From assembly GCA_026981655.1 (NCBI GenBank), contig JALSIJ010000131.1, positions 3,217 through 67,216 of the forward strand: a stretch of 64,000 bases of DNA. The letters are read 5' to 3'. The position numbers were made by a program, and so were the translations under genes. The DNA is from Rhizobiaceae bacterium. GTDB lineage: Bacteria; Pseudomonadota; Alphaproteobacteria; Rhizobiales; Rhizobiaceae. Positions 5,433 through 33,704 of this stretch are shown here, piece after piece (positions within the stretch are counted from its first letter, which is position 1; every line of letters begins with the position of its first letter). The notes under the pieces were generated by a model. The model saw only the letters and a program-made list of their open reading frames with translations. It did not search any database and was not told where the DNA came from.

Positions 5433-5834
5433 ATGCATCCGTTCAAAAACAAAGATGTTGACGATAAATACCAGGCGCTGCCTAAGGCGCTTGGTGAGAA
5501 GCTTTACGCTTTACGGGAAATGATCTTTGATCTTGCCTCATCCACCAAAGGGGTGGGCGAGATCGAGGAAAGTTTGAAATGGGATACACCTTCCTATCAA
5601 ACTATTCGCCCCAAAAGCGGCACGCCCATTCGGCTGGCTGCGATGGTTGATAAAAACCAATATGGGCTATATGTCCATTGCCAGACGACGTTGATTTCGG
5701 ACTTTCGGGAAATCTATCCCGATCAGTTTTCTTTTGAGAAAAACCGCGGCATTATTTTTAATCTCGATGATGAGATTGCCGAAGAAGAATTGCGCCACTG
5801 TATCTCAATGGCCCTGACATATTACTTGAAGTGA
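5433..5834 (+). CDS. DUF1801 (YdhG-like) domain protein
   Basis: 133-aa ORF. From memory the pattern (LKWDTPSYQT...GLYVHCQTT) resembles DUF1801 proteins. The function is unknown. Confidence 0.65.
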   Translation: MHPFKNKDVDDKYQALPKALGEKLYALREMIFDLASSTKGVGEIEESLKWDTPSYQTIRPKSGTPIRLAAMVDKNQYGLYVHCQTTLISDFREIYPDQFSFEKNRGIIFNLDDEIAEEELRHCISMALTYYLK

Positions 5835-8167: not shown

Positions 8168-8821
8168 ATGAAGTTCTTTATTGATACCGCCGATGTGGAT
8201 GAAATCCGTGAATGGAATTCAACCGGTTTGATTGATGGCGTTACAACCAATCCCTCGCTGATTTTAAAATCCGGCCGTCAGATTGATGAGGCTTTGGCTG
8301 AAATTTGTGCGATTGTTGATGGCCCGGTTTCTGGTGAAGTAACCGCAATCGATACGATAGGCATGATTTCGCAGGGAAAAACGCTTGCCAAGATCGCCGA
8401 TAATATCTGCATCAAATTGCCCCTTACAATGGACGGGCTGAAAGCCTGCAAAGCGCTGAGTGACGAGGGTTTTAAAACCAATGTTACGCTTTGCTTTTCA
8501 GCCAATCAGGCGCTTTTGGCAGCCAAGGCGGGTGCGACCTATATTTCGCCCTTCATCGGCCGGTTGGATGACATTAATATTGATGGCATGGAGCTGATAG
8601 AAGAAATTCGCGCTATCTATGACAATTATGGATTTGAAACTCAATTGCTGGCGGCATCTTTGCGCACCGCAAATCATGTGAAGGATTGCGCCATTGCCGG
8701 GGCTGATGTGGCGACCATTCCACCTTCTACGCTTGGTAAGCTTGTGGCCCATCCATTGACCGACAAGGGCTTGGCGGCATTTTTAGCGGATTGGGAAAAA
8801 ACCGGCCAATCTATAGGATAG
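8168..8821 (+). CDS. tal: Short-type transaldolase / fructose-6-phosphate aldolase family protein
   Basis: 217 aa with [13 protein letters not shown]...GVTTNPSLI. The ICIKLPLT segment contains the expected Schiff-base Lys context. Confidence 0.9.
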
Positions 8822-8857
8822 AGTTTTTTACCCTTCCCTGTTTGATTGACCGGTTTT

Positions 8858-8916
8858 GAAATCAGGTAGTGAGTACATGGGCTACCTGATTTTGGGGCTA
8901 CCTGATTGAGATCAGG
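8858..8916. terminator. Hairpin cluster between the convergent tal and RR-PP2C genes (probable bidirectional terminator)
   Basis: AAATCAGGTAG (8859-8869) pairs with CTACCTGATTT (8882-8892). A second copy, CTACCTGATT (8898-8907), is followed by a mini-hairpin CCTGAT-tgag-ATCAGG (8901-8916) that overlaps the stop codon at 8912-8914. Confidence 0.5.
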
Positions 8917-10195
8917 CTGCCTTCTTAGTCGTATCGGGATGGTTTTCGTTTGTTGCGGCCCAGGGGTTGATCAGCACACCGGATACATCATCGGTAAATT
9001 CGCTGTTTCCATGAACATTGCTCAATTTTTCAATCAGTTGGCCGGGAAATTTTGCCAGATTTATATTTGGCTGGGCGCTAAACATTTCACTCAATCCTTG
9101 CTCATCCCACAGCGAGCCATCGGGTTTTTCACATTCGGTTACCCCGTCAGAAAATAAGAATAATTGATCATTTTTCTCTAGGGTGAATTCGATTGAATCA
9201 TATTCGGCGAATGAGAACAGACCAACCGGCGCGCCGCCTTCACCGACAAAACGGGTCTTGCCACCGGGTTGCAGAACCAGCGGATTTGGGTGACCCGCCT
9301 GACACATTTTAACCTTGCCGGTGCTTCGATCAATGATTGCATATACCATAGTGAAATATTGGTCGGTCTCTGAATCGTCCTGATGACGGCGGTTTAGTTC
9401 CGCTACCAGTTCATGCGGTTCGCGAGTACGCATGGTCCCATCCGGCATCGACTCAAATGCAAGATTGCCCTGTTTTTCAAAGGGGGCCAATGATTGGGCA
9501 AGCATAACTGTTTTCAACGCTGCCGAAACACCATGACCGGAAACATCAATTGAATAAATACCAATTTCATTGTCAGAAACAGAAAAATATCCGACAAGGT
9601 CACCACCGATATAGGTGCAGGGTTTATAGATTGTGGCAATTTCCCACTGTTGAAACCGCTGATATTCCGGTGGAATGTAAACCTGCTGAAGTTTTGCGGC
9701 GGCTTTTAAATCGTCCTCCAGCTTTCCGTGGATCATGGTCAATTGCTTATGGGTACGGTCGAGTTGCTCATTGCGCGCCATCAGGCTTTGTTGCAGTTTC
9801 AATATTCGCAGGCCGGCAACCATTCTGGCATCCAGCTCCTCTTTGTGCAGGGGCTTGGAGAGAAAGTCATCTGCACCCGCATGCAGGCCGGTGGAGACAT
9901 CTGCCTTGTCGGATTTTGAAGTGAGCAAAATCAGATAGGTATTGCCATCGGGATAGGCTTGCCTGATCTTGCGGCAAAGCTCTGGCCCGGTCATACCCGG
10001 CATTATCCAATCGCTGATGATGAAGGGCGGTGGGCCGCTCTCATTTAACAGTTCAAGTGCTTCAAAACCATCTGCTGCGGTTTGAACCTCATAGCCGGAT
10101 TTTTTGAGCAGGGCTGAAAGAGTGATGCGTTGTGATTTTGAATCATCGACCAGCAGCACTTTTTTCAAGTAACTTTGTTGTTCCCGGGTTGTCAT
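8912..10195 (-). CDS. Response regulator receiver fused to a PP2C/SpoIIE-type serine phosphatase (RsbU-like)
   Basis: 427 aa. The receiver has VLLVDDSKSQR and IISDWIMPGMTG. The C-terminal half has PP2C-like motifs GGDLVGYF, IDVSGHGVSAAL and FLFSDGVTE. Confidence 0.88.
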   Translation of the reverse strand: MTTREQQSYLKKVLLVDDSKSQRITLSALLKKSGYEVQTAADGFEALELLNESGPPPFIISDWIMPGMTGPELCRKIRQAYPDGNTYLILLTSKSDKADVSTGLHAGADDFLSKPLHKEELDARMVAGLRILKLQQSLMARNEQLDRTHKQLTMIHGKLEDDLKAAAKLQQVYIPPEYQRFQQWEIATIYKPCTYIGGDLVGYFSVSDNEIGIYSIDVSGHGVSAALKTVMLAQSLAPFEKQGNLAFESMPDGTMRTREPHELVAELNRRHQDDSETDQYFTMVYAIIDRSTGKVKMCQAGHPNPLVLQPGGKTRFVGEGGAPVGLFSFAEYDSIEFTLEKNDQLFLFSDGVTECEKPDGSLWDEQGLSEMFSAQPNINLAKFPGQLIEKLSNVHGNSEFTDDVSGVLINPWAATNENHPDTTKKAA

Positions 10196-10614
10196 TTTAA
10201 ATCCTATCGAGGTTGTGATAAATAATTAATACACGTAATAATTTAATATGGGATAATGCTATTAAAGCCAGCTTTAACCAATTCTTTGGCGAAGAGTTAA
10301 CTTAATCTCTCTTGGGTTGTTGGTATGGTTTATGCAATTGGTGGTGGATACCAAGAACAACTTGATGAGATTTTTCTTTTCGGATTTGAGGACAGAATAC
10401 CTGAGCTGACGTTACCTCATTCAGATGCGCGCGAGTTTTTCTGACAATTATTTACGGCTGAATGGTCTCATATGCATGCTCGGTTACTCAACTTATAGGG
10501 GGTCAAAGTGTAAAATTTCTGAAATCGGGAATATAGTAGCAACCATTCATGAATCGTTAAATAAATACACTCAATAGTAGTACATATTATTTTCACTACT
10601 TAAAGGAACGATTC

Positions 10615-13116
10615 ATGGCCGTTGTATCAATCAGAAAATCAGAGGTTGAGTACGATGATGGCCAGCGGCAAAGCATATTGGAGGGGATGGAGTTCTTTCT
10701 TAAATATTCTCGCCTTGTTTCGCCTGATGAGGCCAGCAAACAAGATGTAATGCAAGCGCTTGGCCACGCAATCCGCAATCGGATGATTGACCGGATGATT
10801 GAAACTGAAAAGCAAAATCTGGCTGAGGGTGGCAAACGGGTTCACTATTTGTCGATGGAGTTTCTGGTTGGCCGTTTGCTTGAAAACAACATTATCAACC
10901 TGCAGCTGGAAAATGAATGCGATAATGCGGCAACGGCTCTCGGCTATTCGCTGGAAGAATTGTTTGATGCTGAATATGACCCGGCACTTGGCAATGGCGG
11001 GCTGGGTCGGTTAGCGGCCTGCTTTGTAGATTCTATGGCAACGCTGGGCATTCCCGGCTCAGGTTACGGTATCAATTATGAGTATGGACTGTTTCGGCAG
11101 AAATTCTCAAACGGTTATCAGCGCGAAGAGCCAGACCATTGGCTGATTGACGGTACGCCCTGGAACATTGAGCGGCCGAATGATAAAATTGTGGTGCCGT
11201 TATACGGTCGGGTTGAAAATTATTCCGACCATAATGGCCATCAAGGCCCGGTATGGGTTGATTGGGATGTGGTGATCGGGGTTCCGCATGATATGCCGAT
11301 TGCCGGCTATCGCGGCGCTACGGTTAACACATTACGACTCTATTCGGCGCGCTCGTCGGATGAATTTAACATGTCGATCTTCAATGAGGGCGATTATCTT
11401 AAGGCGGTTGAGAAAAAGATCTCATCTGAACGCATCTCAAAAATTCTTTACCCGGAGGACTCGGTCAAGTCCGGTCGCGAATTGCGCCTTATTCAGGAAT
11501 ATTTCCTGGTTTCCTGTGCCGTGCAAGACATCGTTCGCGGGCACAAGAAACAACACGGTTCGGTTGACAGTTTTGCCGATAAACAAGCGTTGCAACTCAA
11601 CGATACGCATCCGGCGCTAACAGTGGTCGAATTGATGCGGGTGCTGGTCGATGAAAACGCCATTAGCTGGGACCGGTCATGGGAAATTGTCAATCAGTCC
11701 TGTGCCTATACCAATCATACATTATTGCCTGAAGCGTTGGAAACCTGGCCTGTATCCATGTTGGAAAAAGTTATTCCGCGCCATATGCAGATTATTCGCG
11801 AAATCGACCGTCGCTTTAACATGGTGCTGGAGGAAAAGTTTCCTGACGATGCGGAAAAGCGTTCTAGGCTTGCGATTATCGGGCTTAAAAATGGTCATTC
11901 CGGTGCGGCGAGCTCTGGTGCCGGGCTGGTGCGTATGGCTGGTTTGTTGATGGTTGCCTGTCATTCTATCAACGGTGTTGCGGCGCTTCATTCTGACCTG
12001 GTGAAAACCAATCTGGCGCCGGGTTATAACAGACTTTGGCCGGAAAAATTTAACAACAAAACCAATGGGGTTACCCCGCGCCGGTGGTTGCTTCAATGTA
12101 ACAAGCCGCTGGCCGGGTTGATTACCCAGAAAATTGGTTCCGACTGGATTACCGATCTGTCGAGGCTGGAGGAACTTCAATATTTTGCCGAGGACGGCGA
12201 GTTTCTGAACGCCCTGCAAAATGCCAAACAGGTCAACAAAAAGCGGCTGGCTGATTATATTCATCAAACAACCGGCATTATTGTCGATACAAATTCGATG
12301 TTTGATTGTCAGGCAAAGCGAATTCATGAATATAAACGTCAACTATTGATGGCGCTTTATATTGCCCACCTTTACCTCAAGATTAAAAATGAGGGGATGG
12401 AGCTTGATTCGCCTCGAACCTTTATTTTTGGTGGTAAGGCAGCGCCTGGATATTTTCTGGCCAAACGGGTGATCAAACTGATCAATTCGCTTGCTGAGGT
12501 TATTCAAAAAGACCCGGTCGTCTCCCAGCAAATCAAGGTGGTTTACCTGCCAGACTATAAGGTATCTGTTGCCGAGCGGCTGATGCCAGCGGCTGACTTG
12601 TCTGAACAGATTTCTACCGCGGGTTTTGAGGCATCGGGCACCGGCAATATGAAATTCTCAATGAATGGTGCCTTGACCGTTGGCACATTGGACGGTGCCA
12701 ATGTGGAAATTTCGGAAGAGGTTGGCTCTGAAAATATTTATATTTTTGGTATGACTGCTGAAGAAGTTGAACATACACGAACATCTGACCGGTATTTTGC
12801 CAGTGAGTTTTATCAAAGCGACCCTGATCTTGCTGCCGTTATAGATGCGCTTTCTTCCGGTGTTTTATGCCCGGACGAACCAGGCGTATTTGAACCGATT
12901 GCCAATTCGCTAATGGTCGAGGGCGACTATTTCCGCGTGCTTGGCGATTTCCGCGCCTATCTTGAGATCCAGGAGGTTATCGGCAAAGATTTCACCGATA
13001 AGGATTTGTGGATTTCCAAGGTCCTGCAAAATATTTCCCACATGGGTAAGTTCTCCAGCGACCGAACCATTAGCGAATATGCAGCTGATATCTGGAAACT
13101 TGAGAAGTTTATTTAG
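10615..13116 (+). CDS. glgP: Glycogen/alpha-glucan phosphorylase
   Basis: 833 aa. Contains the PLP-lysine motif EASGTGNMKF, LGNGGLGRLAACF and the IHEYKRQ block. An AAGGA Shine-Dalgarno precedes the ATG. Confidence 0.93.
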   Translation: MAVVSIRKSEVEYDDGQRQSILEGMEFFLKYSRLVSPDEASKQDVMQALGHAIRNRMIDRMIETEKQNLAEGGKRVHYLSMEFLVGRLLENNIINLQLENECDNAATALGYSLEELFDAEYDPALGNGGLGRLAACFVDSMATLGIPGSGYGINYEYGLFRQKFSNGYQREEPDHWLIDGTPWNIERPNDKIVVPLYGRVENYSDHNGHQGPVWVDWDVVIGVPHDMPIAGYRGATVNTLRLYSARSSDEFNMSIFNEGDYLKAVEKKISSERISKILYPEDSVKSGRELRLIQEYFLVSCAVQDIVRGHKKQHGSVDSFADKQALQLNDTHPALTVVELMRVLVDENAISWDRSWEIVNQSCAYTNHTLLPEALETWPVSMLEKVIPRHMQIIREIDRRFNMVLEEKFPDDAEKRSRLAIIGLKNGHSGAASSGAGLVRMAGLLMVACHSINGVAALHSDLVKTNLAPGYNRLWPEKFNNKTNGVTPRRWLLQCNKPLAGLITQKIGSDWITDLSRLEELQYFAEDGEFLNALQNAKQVNKKRLADYIHQTTGIIVDTNSMFDCQAKRIHEYKRQLLMALYIAHLYLKIKNEGMELDSPRTFIFGGKAAPGYFLAKRVIKLINSLAEVIQKDPVVSQQIKVVYLPDYKVSVAERLMPAADLSEQISTAGFEASGTGNMKFSMNGALTVGTLDGANVEISEEVGSENIYIFGMTAEEVEHTRTSDRYFASEFYQSDPDLAAVIDALSSGVLCPDEPGVFEPIANSLMVEGDYFRVLGDFRAYLEIQEVIGKDFTDKDLWISKVLQNISHMGKFSSDRTISEYAADIWKLEKFI

Positions 13117-13181
13117 GCAGCATCAGACTGCCAAGTTTAACCAATTCAAAAATTGATCAACCAACCTGAAGGATTAAAACA

Positions 13182-13514
13182 ATGATCATTAATACGACTA
13201 ATCGCGATGACCTGAGTGTTCTTGAAGTTATGAACAACCGGATTGATTCATCTTCTGCCGTTGAGTTTAAGGACCATTTGAAGGGTATTATTGATAGCGG
13301 TAATCACCAATTGGTGCTGGATCTTGGCCGGGTCGACTTTATTGACAGTAGCGGCATTGGTGCCATTGTCGGGGTGCTTAAATATCTCGGCCAAAAGGGG
13401 ACGCTTGCCATTGTTGGCATGTCGCAGACTGTCGATCGGGTGTTCCGCCTGACCCGCATGGACCGGGTATTTAGCATTTATCCAACTGTGGAAGATGCTG
13501 TTTCTGCCAGATAA
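13182..13514 (+). CDS. STAS-domain anti-sigma-factor antagonist-like protein (RsbV/SpoIIAA family)
   Basis: 110 aa. Carries the conserved phosphorylatable-serine motif FIDSSGIGAIVGV. Starts 65 nt after glgP. Confidence 0.85.
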   Translation: MIINTTNRDDLSVLEVMNNRIDSSSAVEFKDHLKGIIDSGNHQLVLDLGRVDFIDSSGIGAIVGVLKYLGQKGTLAIVGMSQTVDRVFRLTRMDRVFSIYPTVEDAVSAR

Positions 13515-13551
13515 TTTTGTCCCCTAAACATCCTCCCAAGAAGTGCGCCCC

Positions 13552-14094
13552 ATGAAAGCAATGGTTTTTTGTGCGGGGAAAGGTAGTTGGGTTCAACTGG
13601 TTACCTTTTTAACCCTGAAACCGATGATCAACATTATCAACCGACCGATTTTGAGTTTCATTCTCGAACATCTTATGAATGAAGGGGGCAATGAGGTTGT
13701 AATCAATACCAGTTATCAATCGGATCATATTGAACCCTACTTTGGTGATGGCGCCGATCAGGAAATGAAAATTTCATACTCATTTGAGGGACAACTGGTT
13801 GACGGCGCGTTGCAAGGCATCGCCGTCGGCTCTGCCGGTGGAATGAAACGTATTCGGGACTGGGCAGATATTTTGGATGATAATTTTGTCGTTTTGTGCG
13901 GCGATGCAATCATCGACCTCGATATTCGTGCATTGGTAAAATTTCATAAGGAGCGTGATGCTGTGGTAACGGTTGCCTCACTTAACGTGCCGCGCGAAGA
14001 AGCCGATAAATATGGAATAATCGCAGCAGGTGACAATGGAGCGATTACGTCGTTTCAGGTTCTCAGATCACAACATGCAATTGGAGGTGGTTGA
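13552..14094 (+). CDS. Truncated, motif-degenerate sugar-1-phosphate nucleotidyltransferase-like protein (possible pseudogene or non-catalytic domain)
   Basis: Recognisably NTP_transferase-like (MKAMVFCAGKG..., LKPMI, GSAGGMKRI, VLCGDAIIDLD, YGII). The G-x-G-T-R-L loop reads GKGSWVQL. The ORF stops right after SFQ, where E-K-P and the rest of the fold are expected. No obvious Shine-Dalgarno. The stop overlaps the next gene's start region. Confidence 0.6.
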   Translation: MKAMVFCAGKGSWVQLVTFLTLKPMINIINRPILSFILEHLMNEGGNEVVINTSYQSDHIEPYFGDGADQEMKISYSFEGQLVDGALQGIAVGSAGGMKRIRDWADILDDNFVVLCGDAIIDLDIRALVKFHKERDAVVTVASLNVPREEADKYGIIAAGDNGAITSFQVLRSQHAIGGG

Positions 14095-14609
14095 TGATGA
14101 GCGTGGCCTTATGTCAGCCTGAAAACCAAACCAGCGTTCTTGGGGAAGATGGTGTTAAATGGCATCTTTCACAAAGGATAAGCGCCCGGCTTGCCAATAT
14201 AGGGCCGGCAGCTGAATTTTTTGAGAAATTCTGTTTGTCGCGCTCCAATGCTGATTTTGCCGTACCCATGCTTGGGCCGGATATGAATTTGGTTTTAAGC
14301 GAGTTACTGACCAATATTGTCAAACATGCCTATAGCTCAGGTAGCCAGGACAAAATTGAAATTCGCGCCCGGTTTCAAGACCCGTTTCTGGAAGTGCTGA
14401 TTGTTGATCAGGGCAGTGAACTTCCAGAACGTGTTCTCAAAAAAATAGAAATTGATTTCGATGGTGATGATCTGTCTGGCCTTCCTGAGGGCGGTTTTGG
14501 CTGGGGCATCGTGCATTCGATTGTTGATGAAATTAAATATCAAAGAACGGATGGCTGTAATCGGCTACTTTTAAGAAAGAACGTATTTTTTAATTTGGGG
14601 GGTAGTTGA
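14094..14609 (+). CDS. RsbW/SpoIIAB-like serine kinase (HATPase_c, anti-sigma-factor type)
   Basis: About 171 aa. Has N-box ELLTNIVKHAY and G-boxes LIVDQGSELP and GGFGWGIVHSIV. A GGAGGTGG Shine-Dalgarno lies at 14084-14090. Candidate starts are TTG 14091, ATG 14094 and ATG 14097. Confidence 0.8.
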   Translation: MMSVALCQPENQTSVLGEDGVKWHLSQRISARLANIGPAAEFFEKFCLSRSNADFAVPMLGPDMNLVLSELLTNIVKHAYSSGSQDKIEIRARFQDPFLEVLIVDQGSELPERVLKKIEIDFDGDDLSGLPEGGFGWGIVHSIVDEIKYQRTDGCNRLLLRKNVFFNLGGS

Positions 14610-14923
14610 AATGCCCAATATTCTGTTTGTCAGTTCTGAATATTATCTACTTTAATGGGCCGAAACAGGGATGTTCGGCTGCTTTTGGAAATTTGGGGCA
14701 GTGGCGGGGCGCATATACGGCAGTTCAAAAATGCGCCGGAATATAATACGACAATGAACCATGTTGACCGGTATGTAGCTGATTTTAAAAAGGCCAATTA
14801 ATAAACATTCGAACCCTGCTGATTTGTGTCAATTTCTTGGCTTGTGGCTGACAATACTAAAGGTTTGTTAATTTAATCTCGTTTAAGTTGTGTAGTGTGT
14901 AATTATTGCCTTAGGATAGAAAA

Positions 14924-16855
14924 TTGCCTCGTTCGGATGCAAAGAAACCAATATTGGAACCATTGTCTGGTACGGGCAAGCATACACCGCGCCGTGTACT
15001 TCGGGGCGAAATATCAGATGAATTTGGCAAAGGTATTTGTGTCTTTACCAGGCAGGAAGAACGCGGCTTCACCGATCTGGTTGAATTTTCCGCACGAGAA
15101 AATGGTATTGCTGCGACCAATTTCTTTGCTGAACCGACGAATGATGAAAAAGCGCAAGCAGCGCCCATAGAACCATTACTTGAATATCGGTATTCGATCA
15201 TCCCGGAAGATGGTTGCTCGGTTGAGTATTTAAAAATTCTGGTTGAAACCACAGAATTGGATATGGCTGAATTGAGCCTTTCAATTAGCTGGCGTGGGGA
15301 AGGCGAGGCTGAAATATGCATAATTGATGCCCCGGACGCTGAGAATAAATCGCCAGTTAGATTTCGACAAAACCAACGACTCGAACTTGCCGGTCTGGAT
15401 TCAAATAAATCAGGGTTTTATCTTAAAATACCATCCTCTTCACTTTCACTGTCGCTCAATTGTAAAGGCGGTATTTCGGGCGATCAAAAAGCCTCAATTT
15501 CAATAATTGCGGATTGTATTTTTCAGGAAAAATCCAGTAATTGGAATGCCTCACCACGGGGCGCATTGTTTACCGGCAGCGGCAGAATTCAGCCTGACAA
15601 AGTTCATGATATTATTGAAATTGCTGAACAGGGATCAGGTTCTGCAAATTCCGATGGGGGCGGTTTTACAGATTATAACGGGTCCGATATTATTGCAGAT
15701 AGTGCGGTTATTGGTAATGCCGAGGCTGAATTAAGGTCTGCTGGTTCTGCCTATATTGATGTTATTGTCAGCCAGAAAGTTGAACTCTTTCATGGTGAGG
15801 ATGTTATCTTGAATACGTCGGCGCTTTTTGACGATAAGGTTGGGCATGATGCAACCTATGTGTCGGCCAGCCTGCCTGAATGGATTTTTCTGGATCACAG
15901 AAATGGTGATCTGATGGGCACGGTGCCGGCCTGCAAAGAGGATTGTCTGGAACTTGAGTTCTCCATCTATGCGGTTGATTTCGAGGGCAATTCGGCGAAG
16001 GCAATTGTTCCGGCAGAATGCGTGGCTCCCAGGCTTCCGGCGGGGGAGGATCTTCATGATTACAGCTTTAGCGAGGGAAGTGCGGTATCCATTGCGACGG
16101 TCGGAATGTTTGTAGATTTTGGCTTGAATGTCACCAATTTGGAATTTTCCGGGAGCGGCCTGCCTGAAGGGCTCAGTGTGGCCAAATCTGATGGGTTGAT
16201 AACCGGACTTCTAGAAAAAGGGGCAGCCGCAAACGCGCCCTATAATATTATTGTTACGGCGAACGAACCTGATGACGCTGGCGGTGGAATTTCAATGCAG
16301 TTTCTGCTTGATGTGGTTGAAAATGAAAACCTGACATTATCACTTTGCAATCCTGCCTCATCTGAGGCGATCAAAAATCTTTATAAGTTAAACCGCGAAA
16401 GTGAGCAGATATTTGCAGCTGGCATTATTGGTGAATTGAAGGGAAGGGCTGATGGTTATGCCTTTCAGGAAATGCCGCTGACTGCCAATAATCTGGAGAA
16501 TGAAAACGAGACTTCAGTCGTTCCCTCTGTCTGTATGTTTGCACCAGAACGGCACATATACCTGCAGATTCAAAATAGTAAAAATGGCGATGTGGCCGAT
16601 TACCTGTATGAGGTGAATTTGCTGGACCATAATAATCAATCGAATTTGATTGAATGCGCGCCTGATGGATTTATTAAAATCAAATGCAGGTCTGACCAAC
16701 GCTTTGTTGACTTCGAGCTCGTTCAAAAATCTATTAACGGGGTAGAAAACCGGTTTGATATTTGTGTCGATACATTTGAAGGACGAATGATGCCAGGTCA
16801 TCATCAATCAGATACATTTACCGAAAAGCAATTGCGCCAATTGAGTGCGGCTTAA
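14924..16855 (+). CDS. Large acidic hypothetical protein with two putative Ig/cadherin-like (He_PIG-type) repeats
   Basis: 643-aa ORF. Contains LPEWIFLDHRNGDLMGTVP and LPEGLSVAKSDGLITGLL, the LP.GL...G.I.G pattern of He_PIG/dystroglycan-type cadherin-like domains. No N-terminal signal peptide seen. The ORF-track start is a TTG and the first in-frame ATG is more than 100 codons in, so the start is uncertain. Confidence 0.6.
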   Translation: MPRSDAKKPILEPLSGTGKHTPRRVLRGEISDEFGKGICVFTRQEERGFTDLVEFSARENGIAATNFFAEPTNDEKAQAAPIEPLLEYRYSIIPEDGCSVEYLKILVETTELDMAELSLSISWRGEGEAEICIIDAPDAENKSPVRFRQNQRLELAGLDSNKSGFYLKIPSSSLSLSLNCKGGISGDQKASISIIADCIFQEKSSNWNASPRGALFTGSGRIQPDKVHDIIEIAEQGSGSANSDGGGFTDYNGSDIIADSAVIGNAEAELRSAGSAYIDVIVSQKVELFHGEDVILNTSALFDDKVGHDATYVSASLPEWIFLDHRNGDLMGTVPACKEDCLELEFSIYAVDFEGNSAKAIVPAECVAPRLPAGEDLHDYSFSEGSAVSIATVGMFVDFGLNVTNLEFSGSGLPEGLSVAKSDGLITGLLEKGAAANAPYNIIVTANEPDDAGGGISMQFLLDVVENENLTLSLCNPASSEAIKNLYKLNRESEQIFAAGIIGELKGRADGYAFQEMPLTANNLENENETSVVPSVCMFAPERHIYLQIQNSKNGDVADYLYEVNLLDHNNQSNLIECAPDGFIKIKCRSDQRFVDFELVQKSINGVENRFDICVDTFEGRMMPGHHQSDTFTEKQLRQLSAA

Positions 16856-16910: not shown

Positions 16911-17450
16911 TTAGTCGCTTGCGGGAAGTTCTGCGTATTTTGGAGCACAGATAAAAGCGGCCCAGAGCTGGTCGTTATTTGAATTCCAGATTGGAAAGAT
17001 ACCTCGGTACATGGTGACACTGAGTTGGTTTTTGAAGGGGGAGCGGGTTTCTGCCAGCAATATTTGTCTTGTTGCGATGCTGCCAAAAATATCTTGAAAT
17101 ATTGTGGCTGGATCGATATTGGTTTCGGCCTTTAAGAATTCTGAATAACTCCGGCCGCTTGACGAGTCCGGGTCAAAGCGACCCGGAAATTTTTCGCCAC
17201 GCAACATAATTCTGCAATCGGGTTTTCCAAAGCAAATCAACGGTGCCAGAAACATGGCATAGTCTGACAATTGCTGTTCATTCGCATTCAGAAGTTCCGA
17301 GATTGAAGGTGCCCAGTTTTTACGAATGGTTGAGCGTATGTATAAATCATAGGCAATGGCAACAGGATGGTTATCGCGAATTTCTTCACGGCTGATAATG
17401 GTTCTGTTCGGCAAAGTGTTGACGACAGGAATTTGTAATATAGCGGCCAT
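16911..17450 (-). CDS. Hypothetical protein (weakly reminiscent of small alphaproteobacterial PAS_5/DUF1457-type proteins)
   Basis: 179-aa ORF with a GGAG Shine-Dalgarno 8 nt upstream of the ATG. Convergent with the He_PIG gene. The family assignment rests only on a faint recollection. Confidence 0.55.
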   Translation of the reverse strand: MAAILQIPVVNTLPNRTIISREEIRDNHPVAIAYDLYIRSTIRKNWAPSISELLNANEQQLSDYAMFLAPLICFGKPDCRIMLRGEKFPGRFDPDSSSGRSYSEFLKAETNIDPATIFQDIFGSIATRQILLAETRSPFKNQLSVTMYRGIFPIWNSNNDQLWAAFICAPKYAELPASD

Positions 17451-31074: not shown

Positions 31075-31941
31075 ATGGATTATGCCGCGGTTGTGATCGT
31101 GGAGGTGTTTTACGGTATCTCTGTACTGGTTTTGATCAGTGCGGGGCTGGCTGTTGTATTCGGTATGATGCGGGTGATTAATCTTGCGCATGGGGAATTT
31201 ATAACGTTGGGCGGTTATGCAGCGATTACCGCCCATTCGCTGGGTGTGCCGATATTTATCTCGACCTTGATTGTTGCACCGATTGTGGTGGCGATATTCG
31301 GGCTGGTCGTAGAACGGCTGATTGTACGTTTTCTTTATGGGCGGTTGATCAATACCATGCTCGCCACATGGGGGTTGAGCCTGTTGATGATTGGTGGAAT
31401 GACCATGATTTTTGGCAATACGACAACGGGTATTCCAACCCCGATTTCAGGCTTTACGCTTGGGCGCTATCAGATGAGCGGCTATAATCTGTTTGTCATT
31501 TTCATGGCCATTGTTACGGTAATCATAATTTACGGGGTTTTAAAAACCACGCGCGCCGGGCTTATCGCGCGCGGTGCTATGCAGAACCCTGAAATGGCCA
31601 ATGCATTTGGCTATAATACCTCACGCATTTATATGCTGACCTTTACCGCAGGCGCTGCCCTTTCCGGGCTTGCCGGTGGCGTTATGGCACCATTGGTTGG
31701 GCTTAACCCTGCCTCGGGTGCCAATTATATTGCAAAGGCTTTTATTACGGTGATTTCCGGCGGCACCTCTGTGGTTTCCGGGCTTCTATCCAGCGCCACC
31801 TTGTTTGGCTCGGTTTCGCAGATTGTCACCTTTATTTCCACATCGGTGGTGGGCGAAATTGCGCTGCTGATTGCGGCGGTCATTTTGCTTCGATTGCTGC
31901 CAACTGGCATAACCGGTCGGTTCTTGAAGGGTCGGGTGTAA
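31075..31941 (+). CDS. Branched-chain amino acid/urea-type ABC permease (LivH/UrtB-like)
   Basis: 288-aa polytopic ORF with INLAHGEF near the N-terminus, typical of the LivH family. Confidence 0.88.
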   Translation: MDYAAVVIVEVFYGISVLVLISAGLAVVFGMMRVINLAHGEFITLGGYAAITAHSLGVPIFISTLIVAPIVVAIFGLVVERLIVRFLYGRLINTMLATWGLSLLMIGGMTMIFGNTTTGIPTPISGFTLGRYQMSGYNLFVIFMAIVTVIIIYGVLKTTRAGLIARGAMQNPEMANAFGYNTSRIYMLTFTAGAALSGLAGGVMAPLVGLNPASGANYIAKAFITVISGGTSVVSGLLSSATLFGSVSQIVTFISTSVVGEIALLIAAVILLRLLPTGITGRFLKGRV

Positions 31942-31942
31942 C

Positions 31943-32995
31943 GTGGGTGGTTTGAAAGAAATTGCGCTCACCATAATCGTGGGACTGTTGTTGATGGCTC
32001 TGCTGCCATTGGGTGTAGATACCTTCACCCTGACCGTGCTTTGTATTTATGCCCTGCTGGGTCTCTCCCTTGGTTTCATCTGGGGGTTTGGCGGCATATT
32101 GTGTTTTGGGCAGGCAGCCTTTTTCGGGCTTGGGGCCTATGCCTATGCGATTGCGGCGATAAATTTCGGTACGCCCTGGGCGCCGTTTTTTATTGCCATT
32201 ATATTCCCGGCGCTTATTGCAGCAGTCTTTGGCGGCATGTTGTTTTTCGGTCGGCTGAACGATGTTTATCTTGCTGTTCTGACACTGGTATTTACGCTGA
32301 TCCTGTACAAGTTCATGAATGTGACAGCGGGTGAAAACTACATTATCGGCAAGGCTCGGCTTGGTGGCTATAATGGCATACCCGGGTTTGAAACCCTGTC
32401 GCTGCCCTGGGACCCTTCTGAATATATTTATGGCGATAGCCTGTTTTATTTCTCGCTCAGCTTGCTTTTGCTGGTCTTTCTGGGGCTGCGCTGGTTGCTC
32501 AAAAGCCCGTTTGGCCGGGTGATGATCGGGGTGCGTGAAAATGAGCTGCGGGCCGAATTGATGGGTTATGATGTTCGCCTGATCAAAACTGCTGTGTTCG
32601 CCATTGGTGGCGGTGTTGCAGGTCTTGCGGGTTGCCTTTACGCAAATTGGGCAGAGATTGTTACGCCAAACCTGTTTTCGCTTGGCCAATCGGCCGAGGT
32701 GATTATTTGGGTTATCGTCGGTGGTGCCGGAACCCTGTTTGGGCCCATTTTGGGGGCGGCGATTATGGGCTATATGAAATTCCTTTTGGGCCAGCAAAGC
32801 CTGATTGATAACACGCTGGTGATGGGGGCTGTGCTGGTTCTGGCGGTGCTGCTTTTGCCGCGCGGAATATTCCCTGTTATCGCTGATCGGTTTACCCGCA
32901 AAACCGGTCGCGAGCGCACCACTAGAAGCAGATCTTCGCGAAAACGCCCGACCAGAAAGCGTCATCGCAGAAGGGAGGGTTCCAATGAGCAATAA
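31943..32995 (+). CDS. Branched-chain amino acid/urea-type ABC permease (LivM/UrtC-like) with an Arg/Lys-rich C-terminal tail
   Basis: 350 aa with a GTG start 1 nt after the previous stop. Polytopic. Ends in RFTRKTGRERTTRSRSSRKRPTRKRHRRREGSNEQ. Confidence 0.85.
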   Translation: MGGLKEIALTIIVGLLLMALLPLGVDTFTLTVLCIYALLGLSLGFIWGFGGILCFGQAAFFGLGAYAYAIAAINFGTPWAPFFIAIIFPALIAAVFGGMLFFGRLNDVYLAVLTLVFTLILYKFMNVTAGENYIIGKARLGGYNGIPGFETLSLPWDPSEYIYGDSLFYFSLSLLLLVFLGLRWLLKSPFGRVMIGVRENELRAELMGYDVRLIKTAVFAIGGGVAGLAGCLYANWAEIVTPNLFSLGQSAEVIIWVIVGGAGTLFGPILGAAIMGYMKFLLGQQSLIDNTLVMGAVLVLAVLLLPRGIFPVIADRFTRKTGRERTTRSRSSRKRPTRKRHRRREGSNEQ

Positions 32996-33704
32996 TATTG
33001 TGGTTGAAGCCCGTGATCTAACGGTTCGTTTTGACGGTGTGGTGGCGCTGGACAATGTTAATTTGAAATTACAGCGCAATGAATTGCGCTGTCTTATCGG
33101 GCCAAACGGGGCTGGCAAAAGCACCTTTTTTAAATGCCTGGCGGGCATGCAGCTGCCAACCAGCGGCGAAATGATTGTCGAGGGTGAGGCCACCACCGGT
33201 TATGATCCGTTTCGGGTTGCACGGCTTGGCATCGGCATCAAGACGCAGGTGCCTAGTGTGATGGACGGGCTTTCGGTTCATGAAAATATCTGGCTGGCTG
33301 CACGGCGTACCCAGAGCACGCGCAAGGCCAACGGAATTGTTGATGATATTCTGGGACGGCTGAAACTGGGCGATCTTGCGCGGCAGGATGTTTCCACACT
33401 TGCCCACGGACAACGCCAGATTGTTGAACTGGGTATCGTGCTTGCGGGCGACCCCTGGCTGGTTTTGCTGGATGAACCAGCGGCGGGTCTGACCGGTGAT
33501 GAGGTGGAGCGCATGGTCAATGTAATTAAGGAAATCAACGATTATGCAACGCTGATCGTGGTTGAACACGATATGCATTTTATTCGGCAAATTGCCAAAA
33601 TGGTCACCGTATTCCATCAGGGCCGGGTGCTGATCGAGGAAGATGTGGACACGGTCTTAAGCGATCCGATTGTCCGCGATGTTTATCTGGGTAAACGCCG
33701 ATGA
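32985..33704 (+). CDS. ABC transporter ATP-binding protein (LivG/UrtD-like)
   Basis: 239 aa. Has Walker A GPNGAGKST and Walker B LLDEPAAGL. A GGGAGGG Shine-Dalgarno lies upstream. Confidence 0.9.
   Translation: MSNNIVVEARDLTVRFDGVVALDNVNLKLQRNELRCLIGPNGAGKSTFFKCLAGMQLPTSGEMIVEGEATTGYDPFRVARLGIGIKTQVPSVMDGLSVHENIWLAARRTQSTRKANGIVDDILGRLKLGDLARQDVSTLAHGQRQIVELGIVLAGDPWLVLLDEPAAGLTGDEVERMVNVIKEINDYATLIVVEHDMHFIRQIAKMVTVFHQGRVLIEEDVDTVLSDPIVRDVYLGKRR

Follow-up and report, generated by a model that had tools for sequence, protein, structure and literature searches.

Why is a complete partner-switching set encoded beside a glycogen phosphorylase gene, and on what could it act if no sigma factor is encoded nearby? 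The question is raised by a stretch of 64,000 nt from Rhizobiaceae bacterium (GCA_026981655.1, contig JALSIJ010000131.1, positions 3,217 to 67,216), here called the window, in which a module of this kind had been predicted to switch glycogen breakdown post-translationally. The five open reading frames (ORFs) on which the original prediction rested are all present and carry the Pfam domains expected of them, and the phosphatase, STAS antagonist and kinase set is complete by its profile matches (PF07228, PF01740, and PF13581). The window was compared with 12 related loci, all from a small group of uncultured marine alphaproteobacteria, and on this comparison the locus is, with high confidence, a partly deleted, clade-specific glycogen operon whose enzyme genes are interspersed with those of an RbaY/RbaV/RbaW-type partner-switching module. 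The best overall explanation of its function, with a probability of roughly 0.45, is that an RbaY/RbaV/RbaW-like switch has been recruited to glycogen turnover, where the unphosphorylated STAS protein would be the effector and GlgP its likeliest target.

The ancestral order, as seen in the relatives, begins with a receiver-PP2C phosphatase gene on the minus strand and continues with GT2, DUF3131, glgP, STAS, a 391-aa NDP-sugar pyrophosphorylase, the kinase, glgA, a treZ-like gene and malQ. In the window glgP and the STAS, kinase and phosphatase genes are intact and under purifying selection, while the pyrophosphorylase gene has become a pseudogene and both the glgA-malQ block and the GT2-DUF3131 block have been deleted. 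The impression that the module is wrapped around glgP by design is therefore mistaken: relatives possess the full operon, and the compact layout of the window is secondary, being the product of three deletions. It was right that glgP is the sole alpha-glucan enzyme gene here (tblastn gave no match to glgA, amylase or malQ anywhere in the 64-kb window), and the reason is that the other glycogen genes have been deleted.

The phosphorylase gene (10615..13116, plus strand) encodes an intact 833-aa protein matching PF00343 with 1019.7 bits, and its full-length match to TIGR02093 (1105 bits, cut-off 553) places it in GT35. It is 48% identical to E. coli GlgP, lies below the equivalog cut-offs of E. 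coli GlgP and MalP (915 vs 1546 and 898 vs 1273, respectively), and carries the PLP-lysine motif EASGTGNMKF, which falls on the PLP site when the sequence is aligned with the liver and E. coli enzymes. The STAS gene (13182..13514, plus strand) begins 65 nt after the glgP stop, as originally read, and encodes a single-domain RsbV/RbaV-like protein of 110 aa (PF01740, 70.3 bits; TIGR00377, 65.7 bits, cut-off 53.45). Its phosphoserine motif D55-S56-S57-G58 lies at 13344-13355, with Ser56 (codon 13347-13349) as the predicted phospho-acceptor; D55, S56, G58, and G60 are invariant and S57 nearly so in an alignment of 10 STAS sequences. The intact RsbW/RbaW-type GHKL serine kinase of 171 aa (14094..14609, plus strand, alternative start 14091) belongs to the HATPase_c_2 family (PF13581, 67.6 bits, cut-off 27.4), and its N-box (E70, N74), G1 (D105, G107) and G2 (G133-G136) residues are invariant across 15 homologues. 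The predicted overlap of its ATG (14094) with the preceding stop TGA (14092-14094) was confirmed by reading the sequence, and a GGAGGTG Shine-Dalgarno sequence is conserved upstream of the start. The best NCBIfam matches of the kinase are RsbW and SpoIIAB, all under cut-off (NF003144, 48.3 vs 145; TIGR01924, 36.7 vs 155; TIGR01925, 28.9 vs 135), and with scores this far under the curated thresholds identity with either equivalog was rejected. No fusion of the STAS protein or the kinase to a glycogen enzyme was found.

The receiver-PP2C (SpoIIE-type) serine phosphatase of 427 aa (8912..10195, minus strand; PF00072, 91.5 bits; PF07228, 140 bits) retains the receiver residues D17/D18, D62, T92, and K114 and the Asp motifs of PP2C on inspection by eye, and it is predicted to be a STAS-P phosphatase of the RsbY/RbaY/HenR type. 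It is 69-83% identical to its orthologues in four relatives (L002-L005), with an omega of 0.04-0.06, and shows nine lineage-specific changes at otherwise invariant sites (range among relatives 2-9). Its architecture resembles that of the RssB-type receiver-PP2C equivalog NF045505 of Pseudomonas, but RssB orthology was rejected at a score of 166.8 bits against a cut-off of 700. There is no histidine kinase gene in the window, so that the receiver of the phosphatase is that of an orphan response regulator.

The three deletions can be followed in detail. Relatives carry a CelA-like GT2/DUF3131 pair that diverges from the phosphatase gene; of this pair the window keeps a 5' remnant of GT2 at 10362..10453 (plus strand), matching L002 1864-1956 at 74% in blastn and GT2 aa 1-33 in tblastn (E 2e-5). 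Similarity to L002 is picked up again at its position 5791, upstream of glgP, and about 3.8 kb, comprising the rest of GT2, DUF3131 and a small hypothetical gene, is missing. The nucleotidyltransferase-like ORF (13552..14094, plus strand, alternative start 13543) does occur where it was predicted, but as a truncated pseudogene, not an intact gene: it covers positions 1-161 of the 245 of the NTP_transferase profile (PF00483), while intact orthologues of 391 aa combine this domain with a C-terminal LbH domain. Residues 1-175 of the L001 pyrophosphorylase match the window at 82% and residues 372-391 at 100% in another frame (tblastn). A 605-nt internal deletion with its junction at about 14059/14060 (alignment A2 columns 942-1546) removed aa 176-371 and shifted the frame, so that the former 3' end (aa 372-391) persists at 14060-14119 in another frame. 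The pseudogene carries 21 unique changes in 169 aa at sites invariant in 7 intact copies, among them GKGTRVQP to GKGSWVQL with loss of the catalytic Arg of G-x-G-T-R; its omega is 0.38 vs L001, and the window branch is accelerated. A functional sugar-1-phosphate nucleotidyltransferase was rejected on account of the lost residues, the shifted frame and the change of GKGTR to GKGSW, and as a pseudogene the ORF cannot be a working partner of the switch in the window. Beyond the kinase the first 37 nt of glgA remain (14611..14647, plus strand), reading MPNILFVSSEYY and then diverging to a stop at 14655; the segment 14560-14647, covering the end of the kinase gene and the beginning of glgA, is 95.5% identical to L001 2471-2559 in blastn (also alignment A2 columns 2125-2170), and glgA, the treZ-like gene and malQ are deleted beyond 14647.

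Whether the linkage is conserved was the natural check on the original prediction, and within the clade it is: the STAS gene directly follows glgP in 12/12 loci covering the junction, the order STAS, (pyrophosphorylase), kinase is found in 13/13 loci (the window counted in both), and the receiver-PP2C gene is present in all 8 loci that reach far enough upstream. With the switch genes of intact relatives interleaved with glgA, the treZ-like GH13 gene and malQ, the tie of the switch to glycogen is stronger than was seen from the window alone. Even the most divergent locus, L006 (glgP 62%, STAS 78%, and kinase 47% identical), keeps the glgP-STAS adjacency, and it is the exception in a clade whose STAS-kinase pair is otherwise split by the pyrophosphorylase gene. 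That gene is absent in L006 and has different internal deletions in the window (aa 176-371), in L094/L089 (aa 72-276) and in L004 (aa 46-326), from which its independent destruction at least three times is deduced. The glgA gene was lost in the window and L006, and GT2/DUF3131 has disappeared from both the window and L004, while in L094 it has decayed to fragments. Because the four core genes (glgP, STAS, kinase, and phosphatase) are always retained, the module is independent of the pyrophosphorylase, GlgA and GT2, and the intactness of the switch and glgP amid the loss of the operon hints that the switch controls glycogen breakdown. The family represents a natural deletion series, with operons that are complete, that lack just the pyrophosphorylase or that lack the entire synthetic branch, and this series narrows the candidate targets.

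The rates of evolution differ considerably between the components. STAS identity is 93-99% across the main clade, with dN of 0.02-0.05 and omega of 0.007-0.047, rising against L006 to about 0.14-0.15 and about 0.09-0.11, respectively; dN is 0.05-0.13 for glgP (omega 0.02-0.06), 0.07-0.24 for PP2C, and 0.16-0.55 for the kinase (0.16-0.40 without L006). The STAS protein, evolving about 5-8 times slower than the kinase, which is the fastest-evolving gene of the locus, appears as the slowest component, as would be expected of a hub with several partners.

Several other explanations have to be weighed against recruitment to glycogen turnover. The least probable, and indeed very unlikely, is that the module of the window is a non-functional relic of a collapsing operon, as might be suspected from three deletions in 6 kb, a pseudogene between the STAS and kinase genes and the disappearance of the entire synthetic branch. 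However, omega against the closest relative is 0.012 for STAS and 0.029 for the glgP C-terminus, no catalytic motif is damaged, the kinase gene has kept its Shine-Dalgarno sequence and its overlapping start, and L006 came independently to the same reduced layout, as L004 and L094 did in part. At sites invariant in 10 other copies the kinase shows no change of its own, and its dN to L002 is similar for the window (0.244) and for L001 (0.224), so it was not accelerated on the window branch. Classical partner switches have a cognate sigma factor in the same operon, and such a gene is found neither in the window nor in the 12 related loci; the latter result is from precomputed Pfam calls, and the former, which agrees with the original prediction, from Pfam for ten unclear ORFs and from inspection by eye for the remaining ~40. 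These ~40 encode transporters, enzymes, PriA, CobS/T and similar proteins. It is nevertheless conceivable, though rather improbable, that the module is a classical anti-sigma one, in which the kinase sequesters a sigma factor whose gene lies beyond the window until the unphosphorylated STAS protein frees it, the glycogen operon being merely co-expressed or a member of the regulon. The genome is seen here as 64 kb, beyond which sigma factors and other glg genes may lie; the kinase has the fold of the RsbW/SpoIIAB family, and RsbW of Chlamydia is reported to control the primary sigma factor. In the icfG cluster of Synechocystis the kinase Slr1861, clustered with an isoamylase gene, is yet an anti-SigC factor with a distant sigma gene (PMC12329169), so that a sigma factor encoded elsewhere could also be the target here. 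Against this stand, besides the missing sigma genes, the low scores to RsbW (48 vs 145) and SpoIIAB (29 vs 135) and the rapid evolution of the kinase, which is unexpected for a protein fitting both a sigma factor and an antagonist; moreover, neither sigma knock-outs nor two-hybrid assays revealed a cognate sigma factor in the closest alphaproteobacterial system that has been studied (PMC3999984).

The taxonomic range of the linkage bears on another unlikely explanation, in which a pleiotropic RbaVWY-like switch with non-sigma targets unrelated to glycogen, such as stationary-phase physiology or surface polysaccharide, was inserted once and kept by inheritance or co-expression. Every linked locus comes from a single narrow and rare clade, represented by 2 GTDB species and by 23 kinase homologues in a set of 5.8 billion proteins, for which reason the linkage counts as a single evolutionary origin and may be mere inherited synteny after one insertion event. 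The nearest outgroup found consists of Rhodobacterales STAS-kinase pairs with about 44% (STAS) and 36% (kinase) identity, located elsewhere in their genomes, and no glycogen genes occur within 10 kb in about 78 outgroup loci, mostly from Rhodobacterales. The linkage is consequently conserved within the clade, but the outgroup loci lend no support to above-chance co-occurrence across Alpha- and Gammaproteobacteria. Pleiotropy is also known for the Rba system, which influences colony morphology and survival in stationary phase as well as the production of gene transfer agent (PMC3999984). The analogy with SypA and HenR, moreover, makes the GT2/DUF3131 pair divergent from the phosphatase gene in relatives a further candidate on the polysaccharide side. 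Simple inheritance, however, is difficult to reconcile with glgP, STAS and kinase genes never separated despite at least five separate deletions and dS >1 (saturated) between most loci; the switch genes are interleaved, with the kinase start translationally coupled to the pyrophosphorylase gene, and not merely appended, and the switch outlasts the loss of GT2/DUF3131 in three lineages.

For recruitment to glycogen turnover the parts of the reading differ in strength. That the output of the module concerns glycogen metabolism is judged slightly more probable than the opposite, and the odds that it is carried by the STAS protein rather than the kinase are put at about even, while direct action on GlgP is a tentative proposal with a chance well below even. 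In such a scheme the kinase would phosphorylate STAS Ser56 using ATP, and the phosphatase would dephosphorylate it when a histidine kinase phosphorylates receiver D62. The unphosphorylated STAS protein would be the output, as for RbaV, SypA, and HsbA, acting post-translationally on glycogen turnover, most probably via binding of GlgP, and in intact operons the pyrophosphorylase and GlgA might be under reciprocal control. The fully specified version, in which this STAS form binds and switches GlgP directly, the two synthetic enzymes are reciprocally controlled and STAS-P is set by an ATP-sensitive kinase and a two-component-controlled PP2C, is similarly doubtful. RsbW-type kinases, such as RsbW of B. 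subtilis, are sensitive to ATP supply; a drop in energy charge would therefore leave the STAS protein unphosphorylated and could trigger glycogen mobilisation. As the components are small and soluble, reconstitution in vitro from synthetic genes is feasible despite the organisms being uncultured.

Known controls of bacterial glycogen metabolism include allosteric effectors of GlgC, CsrA and transcriptional control, and binding of HPr to GlgP. A targeted literature search found no described case of its control by partner switching, and the accessible part of a 2024 comprehensive review of prokaryotic alpha-glucan enzymes mentions neither STAS and anti-sigma proteins nor partner switching. If the switch does act on GlgP, or reciprocally on synthesis and breakdown, a serine-phosphorylation layer would be added to storage-carbon control in bacteria, a functional analogue of the eukaryotic phosphorylase kinase/phosphatase system built from partner-switch parts. 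Among known switches, HsbR/HsbA of Pseudomonas aeruginosa has a sigma-independent output by the unphosphorylated STAS protein and input through a receiver domain. SypE/SypA of Vibrio fischeri works in the same manner (PMC8256260). In both systems, however, a single fused protein provides kinase and phosphatase, and the outputs, biofilm formation and the control of c-di-GMP or motility, are not linked to storage polysaccharide. In E. coli the small phosphoprotein HPr binds GlgP and regulates it allosterically (PMC13324651), which shows that a phosphoprotein switch can act on GlgP, although HPr is unrelated to STAS proteins and is phosphorylated on histidine by the PTS. The window enzyme, moreover, has Asp and Lys in place of the HPr acceptor His806 and of His809, respectively, of E. 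coli GlgP.

Two cyanobacterial systems combine partner switching with polysaccharide enzymes. The icfG cluster of Synechocystis sp. PCC 6803 (slr1856-slr1861), whose mutants have carbon and glucose metabolism phenotypes, groups the kinase Slr1861, the PP2C IcfG and STAS proteins with an alpha-glucan enzyme gene, the isoamylase slr1857 (PMC12329169). It differs in having two STAS paralogues, a debranching enzyme instead of a phosphorylase, and a kinase demonstrated to act as an anti-SigC factor with the STAS protein Ssr1600 encoded elsewhere (PMC12329169). In Anabaena sp. PCC 7120 direct control of a polysaccharide enzyme by STAS phosphorylation is demonstrated for HenR/All4160/Alr3423 (PMC13555669): a receiver-PP2C and an RsbW-like kinase set the phosphorylation state, and the target is a polysaccharide-synthesising enzyme, not a sigma factor. 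There the STAS domain and the glycosyltransferase form a single fusion protein, the polysaccharide belongs to the envelope and is not a storage glucan, and the genes are dispersed. The authors regard that module as a cyanobacterial lineage-specific strategy (PMC13555669), and control of GlgP by the present switch, if true, would extend such direct regulation beyond cyanobacteria. The closest likeness is to RbaV/RbaW/RbaY of R. capsulatus, for which no sigma factor was found and genetics point to unphosphorylated RbaV as the output (Mercer and Lang 2014, PMC3999984). This system, likened here by description (the 44%/36% identities refer to Rhodobacterales pairs including that of Rhodobacter maris, L072), is also alphaproteobacterial, with a single-domain STAS protein bearing Ser56/Ser57, an RsbW-like kinase, a receiver-PP2C and no sigma gene nearby, and its phenotypes concern gene transfer agent production and stationary-phase viability. 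Its STAS and kinase genes, like those of Rhodobacter maris, form an overlapping two-gene operon away from glycogen genes, whereas the clade of the window has placed a pyrophosphorylase gene between the two and holds the module inside a glycogen operon.

The gene set around the glycogen phosphorylase gene agrees in all parts with the original prediction, which is borne out by the ORF list, Pfam and NCBIfam scans and direct reading of the sequence. The 427-aa protein with receiver and SpoIIE/PP2C domains (RR-PP2C; 8912-10195, minus strand) is followed on the plus strand by the 833-aa alpha-glucan phosphorylase GlgP (10615-13116; TIGR02093, 1105 bits) and, after a spacer of 65 nt, by the 110-aa STAS protein (13182-13514), which scores above the anti-sigma-antagonist superfamily cut-off and carries the legible motif D55-S56-S57-G58. 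Then come an ORF whose NTP_transferase match is confined to profile positions 1-161 of 245 (13552-14094, plus strand) and the 171-aa RsbW-type HATPase_c_2 kinase (14094-14609, plus strand; Pfam/NCBIfam scans), the two joined by an overlapping TGATG at 14092-14096. The claimed absence of a sigma-factor ORF also held: none was found in the 64-kb window when ten unclear ORFs were scanned with Pfam (DUF1801, GNAT, MarR, GntR/FCD, SNase, CarD, S4, DUF3108, phytase-like, and flotillin) and the others (TRAP and ABC transporters, Leu enzymes, PriA, amidase, acyl-CoA ligase, sugar kinase, helicase, CobS/CobT, and similar) were judged by eye. Promoter and terminator counts over 8700-15100 (15 against a shuffled expectation of 9.8 ± 3.1 and 9 against 7.4 ± 3.5, respectively) showed no clear excess, so that a single transcription unit is neither favoured nor opposed.

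Elsewhere in the window, 14924-16855 encodes a protein of 643 aa that has a putative Ig domain (He_PIG); it is a conserved downstream neighbour in the reduced related loci L004 and L006 and evolves very fast, since these copies are only 31-33% identical. The 179-aa ORF at 16911-17450 (minus strand) has no Pfam or NCBIfam match. Two long minus-strand ORFs of odd composition (438 and 182 aa, 31880-33617) overlap the plus-strand ORFs 31943-32995 and 32985-33704. Lying amid other transporter genes, the plus-strand pair looks like the genuine genes, putatively for branched-chain amino acid transport, and the minus-strand pair is probably spurious.

The contexts of twelve distinct related loci (L001-L006 and L089-L094) were compared, several of them from assemblies of 2-5x coverage, and errors in sequencing or assembly may account for the frameshifts of L005 and L091. 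Two of the loci, L001 and L004, also belong to GTDB genomes ("Alphaproteobacteria bacterium Dive100_bin10.37" and "Aurantimonadaceae bacterium SZUA-100"). The complete layout, present in L002, L003, L091, and L092, runs from transaldolase through RR-PP2C (minus strand), a CelA-like GT2, DUF3131, a small ORF, glgP, and STAS to a 391-aa NTP_transferase, the kinase, glgA, a 588-aa treZ-like GH13 gene, and GH77 malQ, with the kinase start overlapping the preceding gene by 26-29 nt. Thus the switch is interleaved with a whole glycogen operon, which is more than adjacency to glgP. The relatives' glgA and malQ products exceed the NCBIfam cut-offs TIGR02095 and TIGR00217, respectively, while the GH13 protein is TreZ-like yet remains under the TreZ cut-off. 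The intact 391-aa protein, an NDP-sugar pyrophosphorylase (L001 858-2033; L002 8854-10029; also in the other intact relatives) with a left-handed beta-helix at its C-terminus, is under every NCBIfam cut-off (best mannose-1-P guanylyltransferase, 187 bits; GlgC, 124 bits) and 28% identical to E. coli GlgC; by its sequence it is not a canonical GlgC. It is the sole candidate donor-sugar enzyme beside the ADP-glucose-type glgA. Between the phosphatase gene and glgP (L002 1864-5745) the relatives encode the GT2 (613 aa), the DUF3131 protein (439 aa), and an ORF of 127-140 aa belonging to no family; the arrangement suggests a putative beta-glucan synthase/glucanase pair divergent from the phosphatase gene.

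Against this background the window locus is a decayed copy of the full operon, with three lesions mapped by tblastn with the relatives' proteins and by four-way DNA alignment. The NTP_transferase-like ORF of the original prediction is present at 13552-14094 but is a pseudogene: 605 nt are missing (alignment columns 942-1546; junction 14059/14060), which removed residues 176-371 and shifted the frame, and the original last 20 codons persist at 14060-14119 in another frame with 100% identity. At positions that do not vary in seven intact copies, the 169 codons left have 21 unique substitutions (0-2 in close relatives); among them T12S, R13W, P16L, and P22L fall in the nucleotide-binding loop (G-x-G-T-R). 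Omega is 0.38 to the nearest relative and 0.02-0.05 between intact copies (dN 0.05-0.11), with the excess on the window branch. Of glgA only the first 37 nt are left after the kinase (14611-14647), and tblastn found no glgA, GH13, or malQ homologue in the 64-kb window. A weak 61-nt match at 14658-14718 (74%, E 9e-5) aligns with the 3' portion of an ORF of 546 aa that lies at the far end of L093, which suggests that the post-kinase deletion took about 10 kb, comprising glgA, the treZ-like gene, malQ, a porin, an acyltransferase, and a second DUF3131 gene. After the third lesion, 92 nt from the 5' end of GT2 survive (10362-10453), and about 3.8 kb are missing before the glgP upstream region.

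The related loci form a natural deletion series. The pyrophosphorylase gene was destroyed with three breakpoint pairs (residues 176-371 in the window, 72-276 in L094/L089, and 46-326 in L004), while in L006 it is absent and STAS overlaps the kinase gene; the gene has thus been lost independently at least three times. The possibility that the window ORF is a neofunctionalised sensor domain was rejected, as the frameshift, the 21 invariant-site changes, and the three different deletions in the family indicate decay. The glgA and GH13 genes are kept in L004 and L094 and gone in the window and L006, and GT2/DUF3131 have been lost or are only partly preserved in the window, L004, and L094, the last with decaying GT2 fragments. 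The adjacency of glgP and STAS is preserved in all 12 loci covering the junction, the STAS-(NTP)-kinase order in 13 of 13 loci, and the RR-PP2C gene in 8 of the 8 loci reaching far enough. Each pyrophosphorylase deletion spares both gene ends, and with them the overlapping start of the kinase and the conserved GGAGGTG, as would fit selection for continued translation of the kinase.

Nei-Gojobori estimates, with the divergent L006 comparisons listed apart for STAS and kinase, indicate constraint on the retained genes: STAS, dN 0.02-0.05 and omega 0.007-0.047 (0.14-0.15 and 0.08-0.11 against L006); glgP, 0.05-0.13 and 0.02-0.06; PP2C, 0.07-0.24 and 0.04-0.06; kinase, dN 0.16-0.40 (0.50-0.55 against L006) and omega 0.05-0.22. 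The window kinase is not accelerated (dN to L002 is 0.244, compared with 0.224 between L001 and L002) and has 0 unique changes at sites invariant in the ten other copies; the window phosphatase and GlgP have nine such changes each, inside the relatives' range. Therefore the switch is maintained in the window while the gene between its halves decays. The slow STAS and fast kinase would fit a STAS protein acting as a multi-partner hub, with the kinase mainly as its modifier.

The glycogen-linked clade is rare. Kinase homologues number 23 among 5.8 billion proteins; the genome scan with the kinase alignment placed the linked form in two GTDB species only, and the metagenome scan with a clade-specific STAS alignment added only two short contigs and no independent origin of the linkage. 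Since all linked loci come from one narrow clade, the association counts as a single evolutionary event. An intermediate clade of STAS proteins (P0109-P0113) is 55-60% identical to the window STAS, on contigs of up to 99 kb. The search for fusions revealed no STAS or kinase homologue joined to a glycogen enzyme. An older link of the switch through homologues of the pyrophosphorylase fragment (about 290 aa, 44-50% identity) was rejected, as two of their contexts, L087 (Sulfurovum sp.) and L088 (a metagenome contig), are ordinary polysaccharide or unrelated neighbourhoods without STAS or kinase.

Beyond the observed parts list, conserved interleaving with glycogen genes, decay history, and selective maintenance of four genes, a mechanism may be proposed. 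By family knowledge, the kinase would phosphorylate STAS Ser56 and the PP2C domain would reverse this, governed by phosphorylation of the receiver through a putative histidine kinase. The unphosphorylated STAS protein would be the effector and glycogen turnover the controlled process, as synteny, evolutionary rates, and the Rba, Syp, Hsb, and HenR precedents suggest; a glycogen-related output is given a probability of about 0.55. GlgP is the leading candidate target because it alone among the enzymes has stayed with the module throughout, and direct action on it is a tentative proposal, judged less likely than not; where the operon is intact, the pyrophosphorylase and GlgA could plausibly be affected in a reciprocal way. 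Kinases of the RsbW type respond to the supply of ATP, and an energy-charge input, in which low ATP would leave STAS unphosphorylated and glycogen would be mobilised, would be physiologically sensible. The predicted glycogen switch is partly supported: its linkage to glycogen genes is real and deeper than proposed, extending to the whole operon, but its target is a candidate only; the deletion series makes the hypothesis of a glycogen-acting switch readily testable.

No paper found in literature searches connects glycogen phosphorylase or glycogen synthase with a partner switch, and the accessible portion of a large review on prokaryotic alpha-glucan enzymes from 2024 mentions neither STAS, anti-sigma, nor partner switching. 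The locus represents a partner switch, sigma-less within the loci seen, embedded in a storage-glucan operon. In E. coli the small phosphoprotein HPr regulates GlgP, acting through His806 (PMC13324651); the window GlgP C-terminus (13074-13116) has Asp and Lys at the positions of the acceptor His806 and neighbouring His809 (AADIWKLE versus ADHIWHID), so that this mechanism is unlikely there.

The remaining loci of the genome scan, about 78, mostly from Rhodobacterales (Ruegeria, Roseovarius, Rhodobacter, and others) with some unclassified Alphaproteobacteria and Pseudomonadota MAGs, have overlapping genes for the STAS-kinase pair (about 44% and 36% identity), in three cases with RR-PP2C immediately downstream, and no glgP, glgA, amylase, malQ, pyrophosphorylase, or GT2 homologue within 10 kb. 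They match the rbaV-rbaW(-rbaY) system of Rhodobacter capsulatus, for which neither sigma knock-outs nor two-hybrid assays identified a cognate sigma factor, with RbaV put forward as the output (PMC3999984; review PMC8256260). In the icfG cluster the switch genes sit beside the isoamylase gene slr1857 and affect glucose metabolism, yet the cluster's kinase, Slr1861, acts as an anti-SigC factor (PMC12329169). In Anabaena the glycosyltransferase All4160 has a STAS domain whose phosphorylation is set by the RR-PP2C HenR and the kinase Alr3423, a direct control of a polysaccharide enzyme (PMC13555669). These last two systems, both cyanobacterial, frame the alternatives for the glycogen-linked switch, a sigma-factor target or direct enzyme control.
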